In this document: positions 4,251 to 31,332 of the stretch, piece after piece
Numbering within the stretch: the first letter of the stretch is position 1
Layout: every line of letters begins with the position of its first letter
Source: Escherichia coli
GTDB taxonomy: Bacteria > Pseudomonadota > Gammaproteobacteria > Enterobacterales > Enterobacteriaceae
Assembly: GCF_044647545.1 (NCBI RefSeq)
Contig: NZ_CP172818.1
DNA length: 64,000 bases
Strand: one strand, 5' to 3'
Position numbers and translations under genes: made by a program
The notes under the pieces: generated by a model
Told to the model about the DNA's origin: nothing
The model's database searches: none
Seen by the model: the letters and a program-made list of their open reading frames with translations, nothing else

Positions 4251-4740
4251 ACTGAAGAACCTATTTAATCATCATGTGCAAAACGTGCAAACACACCGCG
4301 GTGTCCGCATTCGATTTCGGCGCATTGATAATCAGTCCGGCCTGAAAAGGTCGGGGAACTGATTATCGGATGATTACATTCTCCAGCATCAAAGCCTCGG
4401 GTTGAGTTGAAAGGTATTTACGGAGCGAATATTAACACGTAGTTATAGGAGGGATATGTTTCAGTAGAAAAAGTGTGATGTACTTTGGAAATTGAATGCC
4501 AACCCATTTACTGGAAAAGGCAGATGACACTGACGAATGCATGTTGAAGTACGCCTGAAATGGCCTCATCGGCTTTTCCCTTCGGGAGATTATTCTCCTT
4601 TTGTTAAATCCAGAACATAAATATGCTCACCCATCTTCGATGCTTGAAAAATTGAAGCCAATCCTGATAAGTAATTTTTTTGAAAGGGTATTTTCCGGAT
4701 TCACACCGGCTTTGATGAGTGAAAAACCGTTCTCTTTTAT

Positions 4741-4959
4741 TCAGTCAATCGTGGCGGTAATTGCTTCAATTGCATATCCCTGGCGAGCATAAGCGGGACT
4801 GATGGTATAGCCGAGCCAAAACACATCGCATTGCTGACGTAAATAGATATCACCAATCAAAACCTGCGTCATTTGTTGACAATGGCCAATTGAATATCGC
4901 GAGCAAGTGTAAGAACTCCCAGCAAGACCCTGTAAATAATTCTGTGTAACTGCCCACGA
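4741..4959 (-). pseudogene. 3' fragment of a GNAT (RimL-like) acetyltransferase gene, no plausible full-length ORF
   Basis: Minus-strand translation ...MTQVLIGDIYLRQQCDVFWLGYTISPAYARQGYAIEAITATID*; closed by an in-frame stop at 4960-4962; below the 60-aa ORF-track cutoff. Confidence 0.35.
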
Positions 4960-5035
4960 TTAAAGGTGGTCGCTCAGGCGGTCACCGTATTCGATAATAA
5001 ATGGGTCTGGAAAAAGTGCAGCATCTGGCAGCGTA

Positions 5036-6228
5036 ATGCAGGTAGCCCAGTTCAACTCTCACTACCAGTATGATCCCAAGTTCGAGCGCGGAATGTATCT
5101 GTATGAGCATCGTCGCTGTTTCAATAACATCATCGACTACTGTAACTCACTTTGCTATCACGGTAAGTTGCAGCCTAAAAGAGGGATGGAAAAAGGACGA
5201 TTTTCCCCGCAATGGGATATTTACATATTGATGGTAGAGGCATGAAGCCAAATGGAGGGAGCCGTCATAACCCTCTTGAAGCTGAAACAATAGCAGCATG
5301 GCTGGTGGCACATAAGGATGATATAGAGCGCCATTACGGGGAACCACTGTACAAAGTTGTTGGTGTTGTGACGCCATTTTCGGCGCAGGTTAATGCTATC
5401 AAAATGTCATTGCGTAAGCTGGAAATTAATGGCAAAGACGAGCAGGGTTTACTGACAGTGGGGACTGTGCACTCCTTGCAGGGGGCGGAAAGGGCGATTG
5501 TTCTCTTTTCTCCTGTCTACTCAAAACATGAAGATGGCAGGTTTCTTGATAGCAACAGCACTATCCTCAATGTTGCTGTCTCACGCGCTAAAGATAGTTT
5601 TCTGGTATTTGGCGATATGGACCTTATCGAGATGCAGCCCGCATTTTCGCCGCGAGGGTTATTGGCAAAATATCTCTTTTCTTCAGATAATAATGCGTTG
5701 CAATTTGAGTTTCAGAAACGACAGGATTTAATTTCCGCACATACACAAATTTCAACGCTGCATGGTGTGGAGCAGCATGATGAATTTTTGAACAAGACTC
5801 TTGCCGGAGCTCAAAAGAAAATAACGATTATTTCCCCTTGGTTATCCTGGCAAAAAGTGGAGCAAACGGGATTTCTGGCATCAATGGCTTTGGCCCGTTC
5901 CCGGGGCATTGATATTACCGTGGTGACGGATAAAAACTGCAATATAGCGCATGTCGATGATGATAAGCGTCAGGAGAAACAACATCTGCTGAATGATGCT
6001 GTTGAAAAGCTCAATAAGATGGGTATCGCTACGAAATTGGTTAATCGTGTTCACAGCAAAATTGTGATTGAGGATGAAGAACTGCTGTGTGTCGGATCTT
6101 TTAACTGGTTCAGTGCTACACGGGAAGATAAGTATCAACGATACGATACGTCTTTGGTGTACCGTGGTGAAGGCGTAAAAAATGAAATAAAGGCAATATA
6201 TGGTAGTCTGGATCAACGTCAGCTTTAA
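5036..6228 (+). pseudogene. yjhR: Frameshifted, 5'-truncated SF1 helicase C-terminal domain fused to a PLD-like (HxK) nuclease domain
   Basis: ORF 5036-5245 (..[11 protein letters not shown]..) continues in another frame as ORF 5212-6228 (..[15 protein letters not shown].., ..[20 protein letters not shown]..); no helicase N-terminal motifs upstream. Confidence 0.7.
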
Positions 6229-10136: not shown

Positions 10137-10883
10137 AGATCAAAAATCACGCAATCCATACAACAAAACCAGATTTGCAATTCGTGTCACAAAATATGTC
10201 GATCTTTTTCTAAGAGGAAGATGCCATGTGAAGCCAGACGAACACTTGCGGTGGTCTTCAAAAACTAAAGATATTCTTTTAAATATCTGTTTTATAAATA
10301 ATTTATTTAGAGTCTAAATAAGGGAAGCTTTGTAAGCTAACTCAGTGAGCTTGGTGAAAATAAGTGTTTACCCGCCATCAGGCTTAGCATAATTCTCATC
10401 ATGAAATATGTTTCCTGGTTTGTGGCTTGTAACTGGTCACTCCTGAAGCCGATCTGGAGAGGCTTGTTGATGTTGGTGTTTTCAGGGTGATGCCTCACTT
10501 AGTTTGTTTGCCGTATCGCCCGGCGAACAGCTGTGATTGAGGAAGGTTTAAGTCGTAGTGACCAAAGCCATATTTACCAACGGATGCAGATGAAAAAATC
10601 GTTTCCTGCTTTCCCCCATATCTCCATGATAAAAAGGAATGTAACAATCTCATGGTCTAAACTGACGAACCAGCCAGGAATAATCGCTAGGGACCTAAGA
10701 ATTAGCATGATAATAGCCACTAAGAAATTACTGCGTTCCATGAAATAGCCATTTTGTGGCAAATGGAGTTGACTAATAATGTCATATGTGAGACGGCTAG
10801 TTGAGCGAATATTAAATTTTGCTGAATTTTTTATGTTGATTTTACTTGTTACAGAACATATCACATGATATATAGATAATAAG

Positions 10884-11544
10884 AGAAGACAGCGCCGGGG
10901 GCCCGCGGCGCCCGCTCCCAGCGCGGCGGGGGCGGGGGGGGGATATAAGGGAGCCTCGTCCCACACCAGCAAAGGGGACGCGGCTCGAGCCCAGCGGGAA
11001 GGGGCGCGGGGAACGTCCGAAGGCGTCATACGCGTAAAACAGCCAGCGCGCGCGATGCGCACATCCCACGTTCGTCCATTCCGCGCAGGACGTGACGACG
11101 CCGGCGTTGGCGGGTTACCGCGCGGCGGGCTGCGGGGCGTTGAGGAACGCCCATAATGGCGGGCGTGCGGCTCCAACGTTCGGCTCTGTTTGGGCTGGTG
11201 CGTACCGGGTTGAGAAGCGGGTAAGTGAACGCGTTGCCGTTTTACGGCAGTGAGAGCGAGTAGCGCCCGCGCGCGGGGGGGGCGGCGGGGCGCGGCCGGT
11301 GTCCCCGGCGCGGCGCGGGTTCGTGGAGGCCACGCGCCAGTGCGGGAGTGGGCCCGGCATGCGAACGGCCGCACTGGGGGCATTCAATGACGACCTTCTC
11401 GGTTCGTGGTGGAGAGGGGGGGACGGTGGGCAGGGCGGCGGGGCGCGGCCCGGCGGGGCCGCGCACCGGGGGGGGGGGGGGGGGGGGGGGGGCGCACCAC
11501 CCCGCGTGCTGCGGGGCAGCGGTGGGCGGCCCCTCTCTCGGGAA
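10884..11544. other. Non-native GC-rich block with a 32-nt G homopolymer occupying the position of fimB-fimE-fimAICDFG and most of fimH; probable artefact or engineered scar, not a gene
   Basis: Abrupt switch at about 10884 from AT-rich nanC-fimB intergenic DNA to high-GC sequence with G runs (10920-10940, 11273-11281, 11469-11502); ends where the fimH reading frame resumes. Confidence 0.8.
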
Positions 11545-11715
11545 CAGTTGATGCGCAACGGTACGATTATTCCAGCGAATAACACGGTATCGTTAGGAGC
11601 AGTAGGGACTTCGGCGGTAAGTCTGGGATTAACGGCAAATTACGCACGTACCGGAGGGCAGGTGACTGCAGGGAATGTGCAATCGATTATTGGCGTGACT
11701 TTTGTTTATCAATAA
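11545..11715 (+). pseudogene. fimH: 3' remnant of fimH (type 1 fimbrial adhesin); the rest of the fim operon is absent
   Basis: Translation ...RNGTIIPANNTVSLGAVGTSAVSLGLTANYARTGGQVTAGNVQSIIGVTFVYQ* matches the FimH C-terminus; upstream frame dissolves into GC-rich filler. Confidence 0.85.
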
Positions 11716-11826: not shown

Positions 11827-11887
11827 AACAAAGCGCACTTTGCGACAATCCGAACAGAGCCCGCCATTGGCAGGCTCTGGTGTTCTT

Positions 11888-16510: not shown

Positions 16511-17284
16511 ATGAAATCTGCCACCTCTGCGCAAAGACCTTACCAGGAAGTCGGGGCGATGATCCGCGATCTGATCATAAAGACGCCGTACAATCCTGGC
16601 GAACGGTTGCCGCCGGAGCGTGAAATTGCAGAAATGCTTGATGTCACGCGGACGGTGGTACGTGAAGCGCTGATCATGCTGGAGATCAAAGGGCTGGTGG
16701 AAGTGCGCCGGGGTGCCGGTATCTATGTTCTTGATAGCTCAGGCAGCCACAACACAGACAGTCCGGATGCCAACGTTTGCAATGATGCGGGTCCTTTTGA
16801 GCTGTTGCAGGCGCGACAGCTTCTTGAGAGCAACATCGCCGAGTTTGCCGCCCTGCAGGCTACCCGCGAAGATATCGTCAAAATGCGTCAGGCATTGCAA
16901 CTGGAAGAGCGTGAACTGGCTTCCAGTGCGCCGGGCAGCAGCGAAAGCGGTGACATGCAGTTCCATCTCGCTATTGCCGAAGCAACGCATAACAGCATGC
17001 TGGTGGAGCTGTTCCGTCAGTCCTGGCAGTGGCGGGAAAACAATCCAATGTGGATCCAGTTGCACAGCCATCTGGATGACAGCCTGTATCGCAAAGAGTG
17101 GTTGGGCGATCACAAACAGATCCTCGCCGCGTTAATCAAAAAAGATGCCCGAGCGGCGAAGCTGGCAATGTGGCAGCATCTGGAAAACGTTAAGCAACGT
17201 CTGCTGGAATTCTCGAACGTTGACGATATTTATTTTGATGGCTATCTGTTTGATTCATGGCCGCTGGATAAAGTCGACGCCTGA
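16511..17284 (+). CDS. uxuR: GntR-family repressor of the hexuronate regulon
   Basis: 257-aa ORF with N-terminal winged-HTH (..TRTVVREALIMLEIKGLVEVRRGAGIYV..). Confidence 0.9.
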   Translation: MKSATSAQRPYQEVGAMIRDLIIKTPYNPGERLPPEREIAEMLDVTRTVVREALIMLEIKGLVEVRRGAGIYVLDSSGSHNTDSPDANVCNDAGPFELLQARQLLESNIAEFAALQATREDIVKMRQALQLEERELASSAPGSSESGDMQFHLAIAEATHNSMLVELFRQSWQWRENNPMWIQLHSHLDDSLYRKEWLGDHKQILAALIKKDARAAKLAMWQHLENVKQRLLEFSNVDDIYFDGYLFDSWPLDKVDA

Positions 17285-17424
17285 CTTATTATAATAAGCG
17301 CAAGGGTAAACGTTCCTTGCGCTTTCTTAAATTAAGAAGTCGCAATGAGTATTACTTTGTAAATTGCAGGGGATTGTTTAGCTATCTGTATAACCTGAAT
17401 GTTAGTACTCATTCTTCCTGGTAG

Positions 17425-18099
17425 TTATTTACCAATATAATTCCATTCACCATTTTTTAATTCAAACAGTTCTGGAAGAGATGACGGTTGCAGAGTCATA
17501 CGTTTGAGTGGTGCATTTTCATCACCGGGATAGGCTTCTATACCAATTATTGGGTCATTACCCAACTCAATATTAGCATTAAGTAATGCGGCAAGGGCGA
17601 ATCCGGAAGAATTTGCTACCCCTGTTACCGTCATTATCTGATCAATATAGATATCAATCCTTGGCTGCTCATTGGTCCATCTTTTTGCCTGAGAAGCTGG
17701 AAGGGTTGAAATATATCCTATCGTGGTTCCGGCATAACCAGGAACATTGCAACCAGGGCCTAATGTTATTTCATGAACTGTATAGTCCTCAACAGGATCG
17801 AAAGGGCCTTTCATAAATAAATTTAGCCGTAATCCTTTTGCTAACTCTGTGGCAGCATGCGCCTTTTTACATATACCACCATATATTTCGTCTAAAGCTG
17901 AGGTGATTTTCAAGTTTCGATAGAGCATACGTCCTGTTGTTGTAATACCATTGAATTCTCTGCATGTTTCTGTCACATAATTAAATGGCCAGGACTCTTT
18001 ACTAATATCAAGTTTTCTAATTTCGACAACGCTTTTTCTATCGTAATTATGGTTATTGCCACGAGCAAGAGGCGGAAGATAGATATTTTCCGTATCCAT
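17425..18099 (-). CDS. yjiC: Uncharacterised protein YjiC (N-terminus possibly cut by an in-frame stop)
   Basis: 224-aa ORF from ATG at 18097-18099; the frame stays open upstream to a TAA at 18175-18177. Confidence 0.6.
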   Translation of the reverse strand: MDTENIYLPPLARGNNHNYDRKSVVEIRKLDISKESWPFNYVTETCREFNGITTTGRMLYRNLKITSALDEIYGGICKKAHAATELAKGLRLNLFMKGPFDPVEDYTVHEITLGPGCNVPGYAGTTIGYISTLPASQAKRWTNEQPRIDIYIDQIMTVTGVANSSGFALAALLNANIELGNDPIIGIEAYPGDENAPLKRMTLQPSSLPELFELKNGEWNYIGK

Positions 18100-18881
18100 G
18101 CGTGCACGTTCATGTTTACGTGTTAACTCACTGTCGACTTTTGGATGATGAAGGAAGTGATTATCTGTAATAATTTAACTCTGAAGGGCATTGCTTAATG
18201 GCATAGACATAATAGTTACCTTTATGAGTATTTCACTGATGCTTAGAAAAATAGATAAATTTTTCTGTAGTAAAAAGAGAAGTAAACAAATGACATGCAT
18301 GTTTCTGTTGTAGTGATATCAACTCTACACAGTGATATTAAATGGTGGGAAACACTCTAAAGTATCAAAAAACGCTCATTTAAAATTATTTGCATGCAAT
18401 TTAAAAGCATATCTTATTACTAATTGGAATTTGATGTTGCTATATTGATGTCTATATTAATAATGCCTGTGAATGGTATTTTTGATGTATTTGATATGTT
18501 ATCAATTTATATTATTTACAAACTAATTGTTTTAAATAATACATAGCTGATTATGCGGAAATAAATAATTTCCCACCGGAATTAAGTAGCGGTGGTGACA
18601 AGTATTTTCATCTACGTAACTATTCGGAATATTCAGAATATACTAGCGGTTTTTTTTTGAGTTTGATGATTTTTATCAAATCATGACTTTTTTCCTGAAA
18701 AGTCAGTAGATATTCATAGGCAAGTAAGGTTTTATACTTTGCTGACAGGATTCAGGCCTGTCTCAGACTGACATGGATGTAATGAACAAAAGGGAATGGC
18801 TATGGAAAATGAGCATCAATACAGTGGTGCCCGGTGTTCAGGGCAAGCCGCATATGTTGCTAAACGTCAGGAGTGCGCAAA

Positions 18882-19274
18882 ATGATGCGCCAATCACGTC
18901 AGGCTGTTTTACCTGAAATTTCAGGCAATAAAACGTCATCGCTGCGTAAATCAATATGTAGCGATCTCCTCACTCTTTTTAATTCTCCTCATTCGGCATT
19001 ACCGTCATTACTTGTTTCAGGCATGCCCGAGTGGCAAGTGCATAACCAGAGCGACAAACATCTCCAGAGCTGGTATTGCCGTCAGCTGCGTTCTGCACTG
19101 TTATTTCATGAGCCACGGATTGCGGCGTTGCAGGTCAATCTGAAAGAAGCGTACAGCCACACGCTGGCGATCAGCCTTGAGATAATGCTGTACCACGACG
19201 ATGAACCGCTAACGTTTGATCTGGTCTGGGATAATGGCGGTTGGCGTAGTGCGACGCTCGAGAATGTCAGCTAA
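18882..19274 (+). CDS. iraD: Anti-adaptor protein IraD (RpoS stabiliser)
   Basis: ORF 18873-19274; ATG at 18882 gives [17 protein letters not shown]... (130 aa); RBS AGGAG at 18868-18872. Confidence 0.85.
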
Positions 19275-20178
19275 GTACAATCTCCAGCTCGCGCAGTTCA
19301 CGCCAGAAGCGTTCGGCAACTGGATTCATGCGGGTATTCATTCGGTATGCATAGGCCTGAATCGGGATCACCAGTTCGTCCCGATTCAGTACAACGAGCT
19401 GCCCGCTGCGAATTTCTTGTTGGATGGCGTACTCCGGCAGCCAGGCAATCCCACAGCCGTCGAGGGCAACCTGCTTTAAAAGCTCGCTCATCGAAGAGAC
19501 AAAAAAGGTGCTGAAACTTAACTCACTGTGGCGCGTCAGGGTGCGATTAATCAATCGCCCCATGTAGGAGTTGCGGCTGTAATTCAGTAACGGAAAGTGT
19601 GGCTGCGCGAGGTTAAAAAGTGCTTCTCCGTGTTCGTCACTGGCGCAGACAGGGAACAATTGAGATTCAAATAAGCGAATGTGGTCAAACGGCGCTTCCA
19701 GCAAATCTTCGTCGTGAAAGGAAAAAATACAGTCACTTTGCCCTTCACGCAGTTTATCGACCGCTTCATCGACATCAATAGCTTCAATTGCCCAGGTAAA
19801 GAGCGGCGGCATCTGGCTGATAATGGACGGTAACAGCCCGAGGGAAAGAGAGTGTGCAGCGGCTATTTTAATTTTGCGTTGCGCGTAATCGCTGCCACCA
19901 CGGAGTTCTGCAAGGTTGCTCTCTAACTGTTGCAACAGATGGCGGATCTGCGAATGGAATATTTTACCTTGTTCCGAGAGTTGCAGCGGCGTCACCTGGC
20001 GGTTAAACAATTCAACGCCAATCGCCTGTTCCAGCGCACGGATGCGGCGGCTGAATGCCGGTTGCGAGACGTTGCGACTGACTGCTGCCTGGGAAAAATT
20101 GCGGCATTTTTCCAGGGTCAGAAAATCATAAAGCCATTTAGTTTCAATATTATGCAAAACCGCACCACAGTCATCCAT
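19267..20178 (-). CDS. hypT: LysR-family hypochlorite-responsive regulator
   Basis: 303-aa ORF with N-terminal LysR HTH (..[32 protein letters not shown]..). Confidence 0.85.
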
Positions 20179-30376: not shown

Positions 30377-31205
<829 letters not shown>

Positions 31206-31332
31206 AGGACGCTGGTGCACTAATGACGAAACAAAGGAGGGGTTCTTCACGTTTGTGAAGGTGCCGAAACTGGATATGGACTATTGAGTGAAATGTCAGG
31301 CCGCAGATGCGGCGCCATCATCCGGCCCAAAA

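Follow-up and report, generated by a model that had tools for sequence, protein, structure and literature searches.

Does the yjiC gene of this Escherichia coli strain still encode a protein, and where would that protein begin? In the window (the whole stretch of 64,000 nucleotides that was analysed), the yjiC locus lies on the minus strand at 17425–18210. An ATG at 18099–18097 opens a 224-codon open reading frame (ORF; 17425–18099), and its frame stays open upstream as far as a TAA at 18177–18175. Further upstream, an ATG at 18300–18298 opens a 41-codon ORF (18175–18300, minus strand), which reads MHVICLLLFLLQKNLSIFLSISEILIKVTIMSMPLSNALQS and ends at the same TAA. Each of these features was found in the window sequence where an earlier note had placed it; that note had proposed either a longer, exported YjiC interrupted by a nonsense codon or a genuine internal start. 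A stop codon that precedes an ORF in the same frame means little by itself. What goes beyond chance, as judged from the alignments, is that homology to YjiC runs across the stop and into the 11 codons before it (MSMPLSNALQS).

The locus was identified as a degraded allele of yjiC, with a premature stop codon and a deletion inside the gene, by end-to-end alignment with b4325 of strain K-12, by synteny and by the PGAP annotation. yjiC is an Escherichia-specific gene of 276 codons that belongs to the DUF2686 (YjfZ/YjiC) family. The window gene aligns with b4325 from end to end at approximately 96% DNA identity, with 93% protein identity over shared residues, and it sits between uxuR and iraD, as the orthologue should, within the gene order uxuB-uxuR-yjiC-iraD-hypT that is common to the window, K-12, E. 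albertii and a divergent E. coli. The translated 224-codon ORF matched the DUF2686 profile (PF10887) with an E-value of 2.1e-123 and a score of 411 bits, where the gathering cut-off is 25. Residues 1–276 of K-12 YjiC cover profile positions 1–285 in Pfam; in the window no one ORF spans the full profile, the 224-codon ORF covering positions 46–285 of 285 with 15 residues deleted internally, and the codon 12 TAA cutting away positions 1–45. The stretch of 25 codons from the TAA to ATG 18099 is homologous to K-12 yjiC codons 13–37; it resembles protein-coding DNA for the simple reason that it is genuine yjiC sequence. The first 11 codons survive as a remnant at 18178–18210 (minus strand) that is the same as K-12 residues 1–11.

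The start codon of the ancestral gene was placed at ATG 18210 (18208–18210, minus strand; MSMPLS...) using the annotated K-12 start, the homologues and Pfam. The K-12 start, MSMPLSNALQSQ..., aligns with this ATG, and position 1 of the DUF2686 profile maps to its Met. An equivalent start is common to K-12, E. albertii, a divergent E. coli and the K-12 paralogue YjfZ: all full-length homologues recovered begin MS[MVI]P..., including E. albertii (61% identity) and two divergent Escherichia forms (63–69%), and YjfZ begins MTLP... at the position aligned to the YjiC start. A Shine-Dalgarno-like AAGG lies 8 nt upstream of ATG 18210 (18219–18222, minus strand), and E. albertii has AGGA at the equivalent position. 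The calculated free energy of the duplex with the 3' end of 16S rRNA was -3.9 kcal/mol for ATG 18210, +0.2 kcal/mol for ATG 18300 and +0.4 kcal/mol for ATG 18099. Within residues 1–37, M1, P4, H18, F19, H22 and P23 are invariant or nearly invariant in the homologue alignment. A consensus scan for promoters and terminators over 17300–18900 returned 5 promoter-like sites, compared with 7.4 expected by shuffling, and was uninformative for the position of the transcription start relative to ATG 18300. A scan of 17000–19500 against Rfam, at E-values up to 1, returned only sub-threshold chance matches to eukaryotic families.

The TAA occupies codon 12 of yjiC (18175–18177, minus strand), which is CAA (Gln) in K-12. 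To type this codon, 55-nt queries with the variable base at their midpoint were run with 28-mer seeding against 5,426 complete E. coli genomes, in 4,902 of which the yjiC locus was found; approximately 500 locus-bearing genomes went untyped. TAA was present in 818 of the 5,426 genomes and CAA in 3,580. Alignment with K-12 and other strains, the check that the earlier note had suggested, thus showed that the stop is not universal; it is carried by about one in six sequenced E. coli strains, among them Nissle 1917, Seattle 1946 and ST131-type strains such as MS14385. Codon 12 is CAA in the divergent E. coli and CTT in E. albertii, and TAA is therefore derived. The idea that a longer YjiC had been cut by a nonsense codon was in this sense correct, as most E. 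coli have Gln12 and a 276-aa protein. The codon 12 TAA is an ordinary inactivating mutation of yjiC. A C-to-T transition converted CAA to TAA, and with TAA at codon 12 translation from the conserved ATG 18210 and its AAGG Shine-Dalgarno sequence would end after 11 residues. We put at roughly 90% the probability that the window yjiC is a decayed allele, a lineage-specific pseudogene with a TAA and a deletion, whose open upstream frame is accidental. A lineage-specific yjiC pseudogene is of a kind already known, sister genomes having been flagged by PGAP.

The other lesion lies near the 3' end of the gene. Relative to K-12, the window is without 45 bp encoding GTAEIHAKMGYKVIP (residues 230–244), made up of a 44-bp deletion shared by the lineage and one further G, missing from a GGG run in the window alone. 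In K-12 the deleted stretch is bracketed by two direct repeats of the 8-nt sequence TATCCCGG, 44 nt apart (4592–4643 of the K-12 locus, L001, where the YjiC coding region is 4494–5321); alignment with K-12 places the single surviving repeat at the deletion junction in the window, 17525–17532 (minus strand). The junction was found in 813 complete genomes, and 813/813 have GGG, that is, the 44-bp form. In the nearest genomes, JE86-ST05 and ESY002, 44 bp are missing, the frame hits a TGA right after ...AYPG, and the ORF from Met38 comprises 192 aa. PGAP annotates the locus in these two genomes and in WP4-S18-ESBL-09 as a pseudogene ("DUF2686 family protein, frameshifted"). Slippage or recombination between the TATCCCGG repeats removed the 44 bp, and in the nearest relatives this loss shifts the frame into the immediate TGA. 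Truncated YjiC products are also present in the protein collection (P0018, P0028 and P0032), of which P0018 is a 229-aa product ending after YPG. An allele of a different kind, P0001 (296 aa, E. coli), carries an internal tandem duplication of 20 residues, KEPWPFNYVTGACRESDGI being repeated.

The two lesions do not always occur together. P0029 (264 aa, 112 contigs) is an allele that has the TAA but lacks the deletion; SK1144 and 2012C-4227 combine CAA with the 44-bp deletion, 2012C-4227 on a K-12-like backbone with AAAA in the leader. Counting codon 12 together with the state of the leader A-run, the 44-bp deletion is found on at least three allele backgrounds: TAA/AAA, CAA/AAA and CAA/AAAA. 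The TAA and the deletion each occur alone, and the deletion therefore either arose more than once, by recurrent slippage, or was moved by recombination. Within the deleted 15-residue block, G238 is invariant and A231, H234, Y239, V241 and I242 are nearly invariant in the homologue alignment.

The intact 3' end of the 224-codon ORF depends on one base. At 17525–17526 the window has GG where the lineage allele has GGG, which converts the 44-bp frameshift into an in-frame loss of 45 bp. In the window alone, then, the GGG run is shorter by one G and the ORF reaches the native C-terminus; the G was lost through a mutation private to this strain, or it is missing through a homopolymer error in the assembly. 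Among the alternatives to simple decay, the one that survives best is that the loss of this G is a real compensatory mutation, selected because this strain thereby regains the YjiC C-terminus. The frame could have been restored by selection, as the change does turn a frameshift into an in-frame loss and the exact 224-aa product is on record, from a single 4.5-Mb NCBI genome contig among approximately 15 billion proteins. Against this, the variant is present in 0 of the 5,426 complete genomes, the TAA at codon 12 remains, and the only other difference within aligned blocks is a private, intergenic, 1-nt homopolymer contraction, and we regard a selected compensatory change as possible though unlikely. 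Over the 12 kb around yjiC, a single base separates the window from several ST131-type genomes, and the 33.6 kb aligned with WP4-S18-ESBL-09 show only three differences: two gaps of 1 nt in homopolymers, and a mismatch where an aligned block ends. The second private contraction, CC to C at about 11842–11843 (plus strand), is intergenic and lies downstream of gntP. Neither homopolymer gap was found in any of the 5,426 complete E. coli genomes. Two private homopolymer contractions in 33.6 kb that are otherwise free of internal substitutions, a pattern typical of assembly error, suggest homopolymer errors in the source assembly; from these alignments the pair looks more like assembly error than evolution, and the missing G itself may be such an error. 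Whether the missing G is real or not, the codon 12 TAA stays. The alignment to WP4-S18-ESBL-09 also breaks at window positions 10879–11545 and 30381–31327; IS1 copies or remnants are present there in WP4-S18-ESBL-09, and the two genomes therefore differ in insertion-sequence content at these points.

A less probable alternative is that ATG 18099 is a genuine internal start, from which the lineage makes a functional, N-terminally shortened YjiC of 224 aa in this strain. Met38, the codon concerned, is present in K-12 as well as in this lineage, the window ORF is open to the native stop, and gene callers list products that begin at Met38 (P0015, 239 aa; P0026, 224 aa). However, there is no Shine-Dalgarno sequence at ATG 18099 (+0.4 kcal/mol, as against -3.9 kcal/mol at ATG 18210), and residue 38 is Leu in most homologues, 2012C-4227 included, so that neither the internal start that had been suggested nor a conserved start at codon 38 was upheld. 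A protein beginning here would also lose the conserved H18, F19, H22 and P23, the Met38 frame stops after 192 aa in 813/813 of the junction-bearing complete genomes as a result of the 44-bp frameshift, and the locus is called a pseudogene by PGAP. We consider a functional internal start very improbable. From what is generally known of initiation in bacteria, reinitiation at ATG 18099, which lies 75 nt past the stop and has no ribosome-binding site, should be inefficient, and may occur at a low level. We infer from sequence and model that little or no functional YjiC would be made from the window allele, because ATG 18099 is without a ribosome-binding site, 37 partly conserved N-terminal residues are lost, and so is a conserved 15-residue segment. 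A more speculative proposal, to which only a small probability can be given, is that E. coli lineages have inactivated yjiC again and again by independent lesions (the codon 12 nonsense mutation, the 44-bp repeat-mediated deletion, further truncations and a duplication), or else that the window strain truly regained the frame and expresses a shortened YjiC from Met38. If the first is true, loss of a biofilm-associated, DNA-damage-induced gene would be advantageous in extraintestinal lineages such as ST131 and ST73.

Far less credible is an exported ancestral YjiC that started at ATG 18300 with a signal peptide and was interrupted by the TAA. Its appeal lies in the sequence VICLLLFLL, which has a mean Kyte-Doolittle value of 2.98 over 10 residues, the highest window in the intergenic region in all six frames, and which has the length of a signal-peptide hydrophobic core (approximately 7–15 residues); moreover, genomes with the AAA run are open from ATG 18300 into yjiC. 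Codons 1–30 of the 41-codon ORF are, however, the 5' leader and promoter DNA of yjiC, and only codons 31–41 are the true YjiC N-terminus. The leader contains an A-run (18221–18223, minus strand), identified from alignments and genome counts, that is AAA here and AAAA in K-12. Its state decides the frame of ATG 18300 relative to yjiC, the two being in frame only with AAA. Typing used short queries, so placed that each 28-mer seed covered the run; by this count 1,229 complete genomes have AAA and 3,637, including K-12, have AAAA, which is also the state in a divergent E. coli (L011). The frame that would carry the extension is thus broken in 3,637 genomes. In K-12 the upstream ATG is in another frame and opens a 57-codon ORF that overlaps the yjiC start (L001 5241–5411, minus strand), and in both K-12 and L011 stop codons close the yjiC frame a short way before its start. 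The in-frame stop lies 4 codons before the start in L011, 18 codons before it in E. albertii (L009) and 6 codons before it in yjfZ; an equivalent of ATG 18300 was not found in L009. No extension like MHVIC... is present in any of the homologous proteins compared, YjfZ included, and the Pfam profile begins at MSMPLS, which is also where PGAP starts an intact AAA-run allele (PRO_A-1490).

The hydrophobic segment MHVICLLLFLL... is without a basic N-terminal region, there being no Lys or Arg among its first 8 residues, and ATG 18300 is without a Shine-Dalgarno sequence. A Pfam search with the 41-aa upstream ORF gave no match, and the intergenic region upstream of yjiC is AT-rich (26–33% GC). A longer YjiC starting at ATG 18300 is not borne out, the conserved start being ATG 18210, and neither is export by means of a signal peptide; we regard this history as highly improbable. 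The MHVIC... segment is best read, from the comparison of genomes, as leader or promoter DNA that is in frame by happenstance in this lineage. Contraction of the leader A-run by 1 nt (AAAA to AAA) puts the unrelated ATG 18300 in the yjiC frame, and the in-frame ATG then gives the illusion of a hydrophobic N-terminal extension. The upstream ATG (MHVIC.../MYVIC...) also opens a separate-frame ORF in other genomes, of 57 codons in K-12 and 39 codons in the divergent E. coli (L011, approximately 1110–1230). This was considered as a conserved small ORF and rejected: it has no Shine-Dalgarno sequence, the K-12 annotation does not list it and E. albertii lacks it, and it is probably non-coding.

Readthrough or recoding of the TAA, such that full-length YjiC is still made, is extremely improbable, and homology on both sides of the stop is all that speaks for it. 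There is no sign of a recoding signal, and of the three stop codons TAA terminates most efficiently in E. coli. The second lesion of this lineage, which shifts the frame, is what one would expect once a gene has fallen out of use. A role for the 11-codon remnant as a leader peptide was likewise rejected, as no feature supports it and the second lesion is present.

The name YjiC is attached in the literature mostly to an unrelated Bacillus glycosyltransferase, and "DUF2686" occurs there in a single paper, on yjfZ as an E. coli marker. For the E. coli gene, a transposon insertion in yjiC gave a biofilm-deficient mutant of an atypical EPEC strain (PMC4100040), and AZT induces a set of K-12 genes, yjiC included, in a LexA-independent manner (PMC11228462). 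A small ORF in the yjiC-iraD spacer, now named ytiC in K-12 (ytiB in the paper), was validated by tagging (PMC6001520). It is on the opposite strand and is unrelated to the 41-codon upstream ORF. ytiC, which encodes 33 aa in K-12, lies at 18463–18546 (plus strand) in the window, where TGG to TAG at 18544–18546 leaves 27 aa in this lineage; at the ytiC position of relatives, PGAP calls only a short "hypothetical protein".

For annotation, these results mean that the 224-aa ORF should not be taken for an intact yjiC, and that it should be kept separate from the hydrophobic ORF upstream. The two private contractions also suggest that the source assembly contains homopolymer errors, of a kind that can create or repair ORFs. 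The allele with the TAA and the 44-bp deletion, present in approximately 15% of complete genomes, makes yjiC usable as a lineage marker.

The possible nature of the protein was approached with an AlphaFold2 model of K-12 YjiC, built from an alignment of 12 sequences, which has a mean pLDDT of 58.6, with values of 60–90 in the C-terminal half. In a Foldseek search of the PDB with this model, all of the top 50 matches (50/50) were enzymes or toxins of the GNAT (GCN5-related N-acetyltransferase) fold; the matches were weak, with E-values from 4e-4 to 3e-2 and, for this low-confidence model, TM-scores of approximately 0.4–0.5 normalised by target. A phmmer search of K-12 YjiC against PDB sequences found nothing significant. 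The C-terminal beta-alpha-beta pattern of the model fits the GNAT fold, and DUF2686 may be a divergent GNAT-like family, which we offer as a lead and not as a claim of membership; as such it could guide study of YjiC, a protein of uncharacterised function. In the same low-confidence model the deleted block corresponds to a helix (231–236) and the start of the next strand, and the 44/45-bp deletion would tentatively remove a core element of a GNAT-like fold.

The intact counterpart of the window allele is K-12 yjiC (b4325, NP_418745.3; DUF2686 domain-containing protein YjiC), a gene of 831 nt encoding 276 aa and starting MSMPLSNALQSQIITD.... The two genes have the same neighbours (uxuR, ytiC/ytiD, idlP-iraD and hypT), and they differ in that the window has TAA at codon 12, is without residues 230–244 (15 codons) and has AAA, not AAAA, in the leader. 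The K-12 paralogue YjfZ (b4204) has 39% identity to YjiC and the same start motif, M-x-x-P. It is intact, at a different locus (rplI-yjfZ-ytfA), and is also without an upstream in-frame extension, but retains the segment that is deleted in the window YjiC. A close likeness is to the yjiC pseudogenes of ST131-type and other genomes (JE86-ST05, ESY002, WP4-S18-ESBL-09, Nissle 1917 and Seattle 1946), in which the TAA, the A-run and the deletion junction are as in the window; those pseudogenes have GGG at the junction, with 44 bp lost and the frame shifted, whereas the window has GG, with 45 bp lost and the frame kept.
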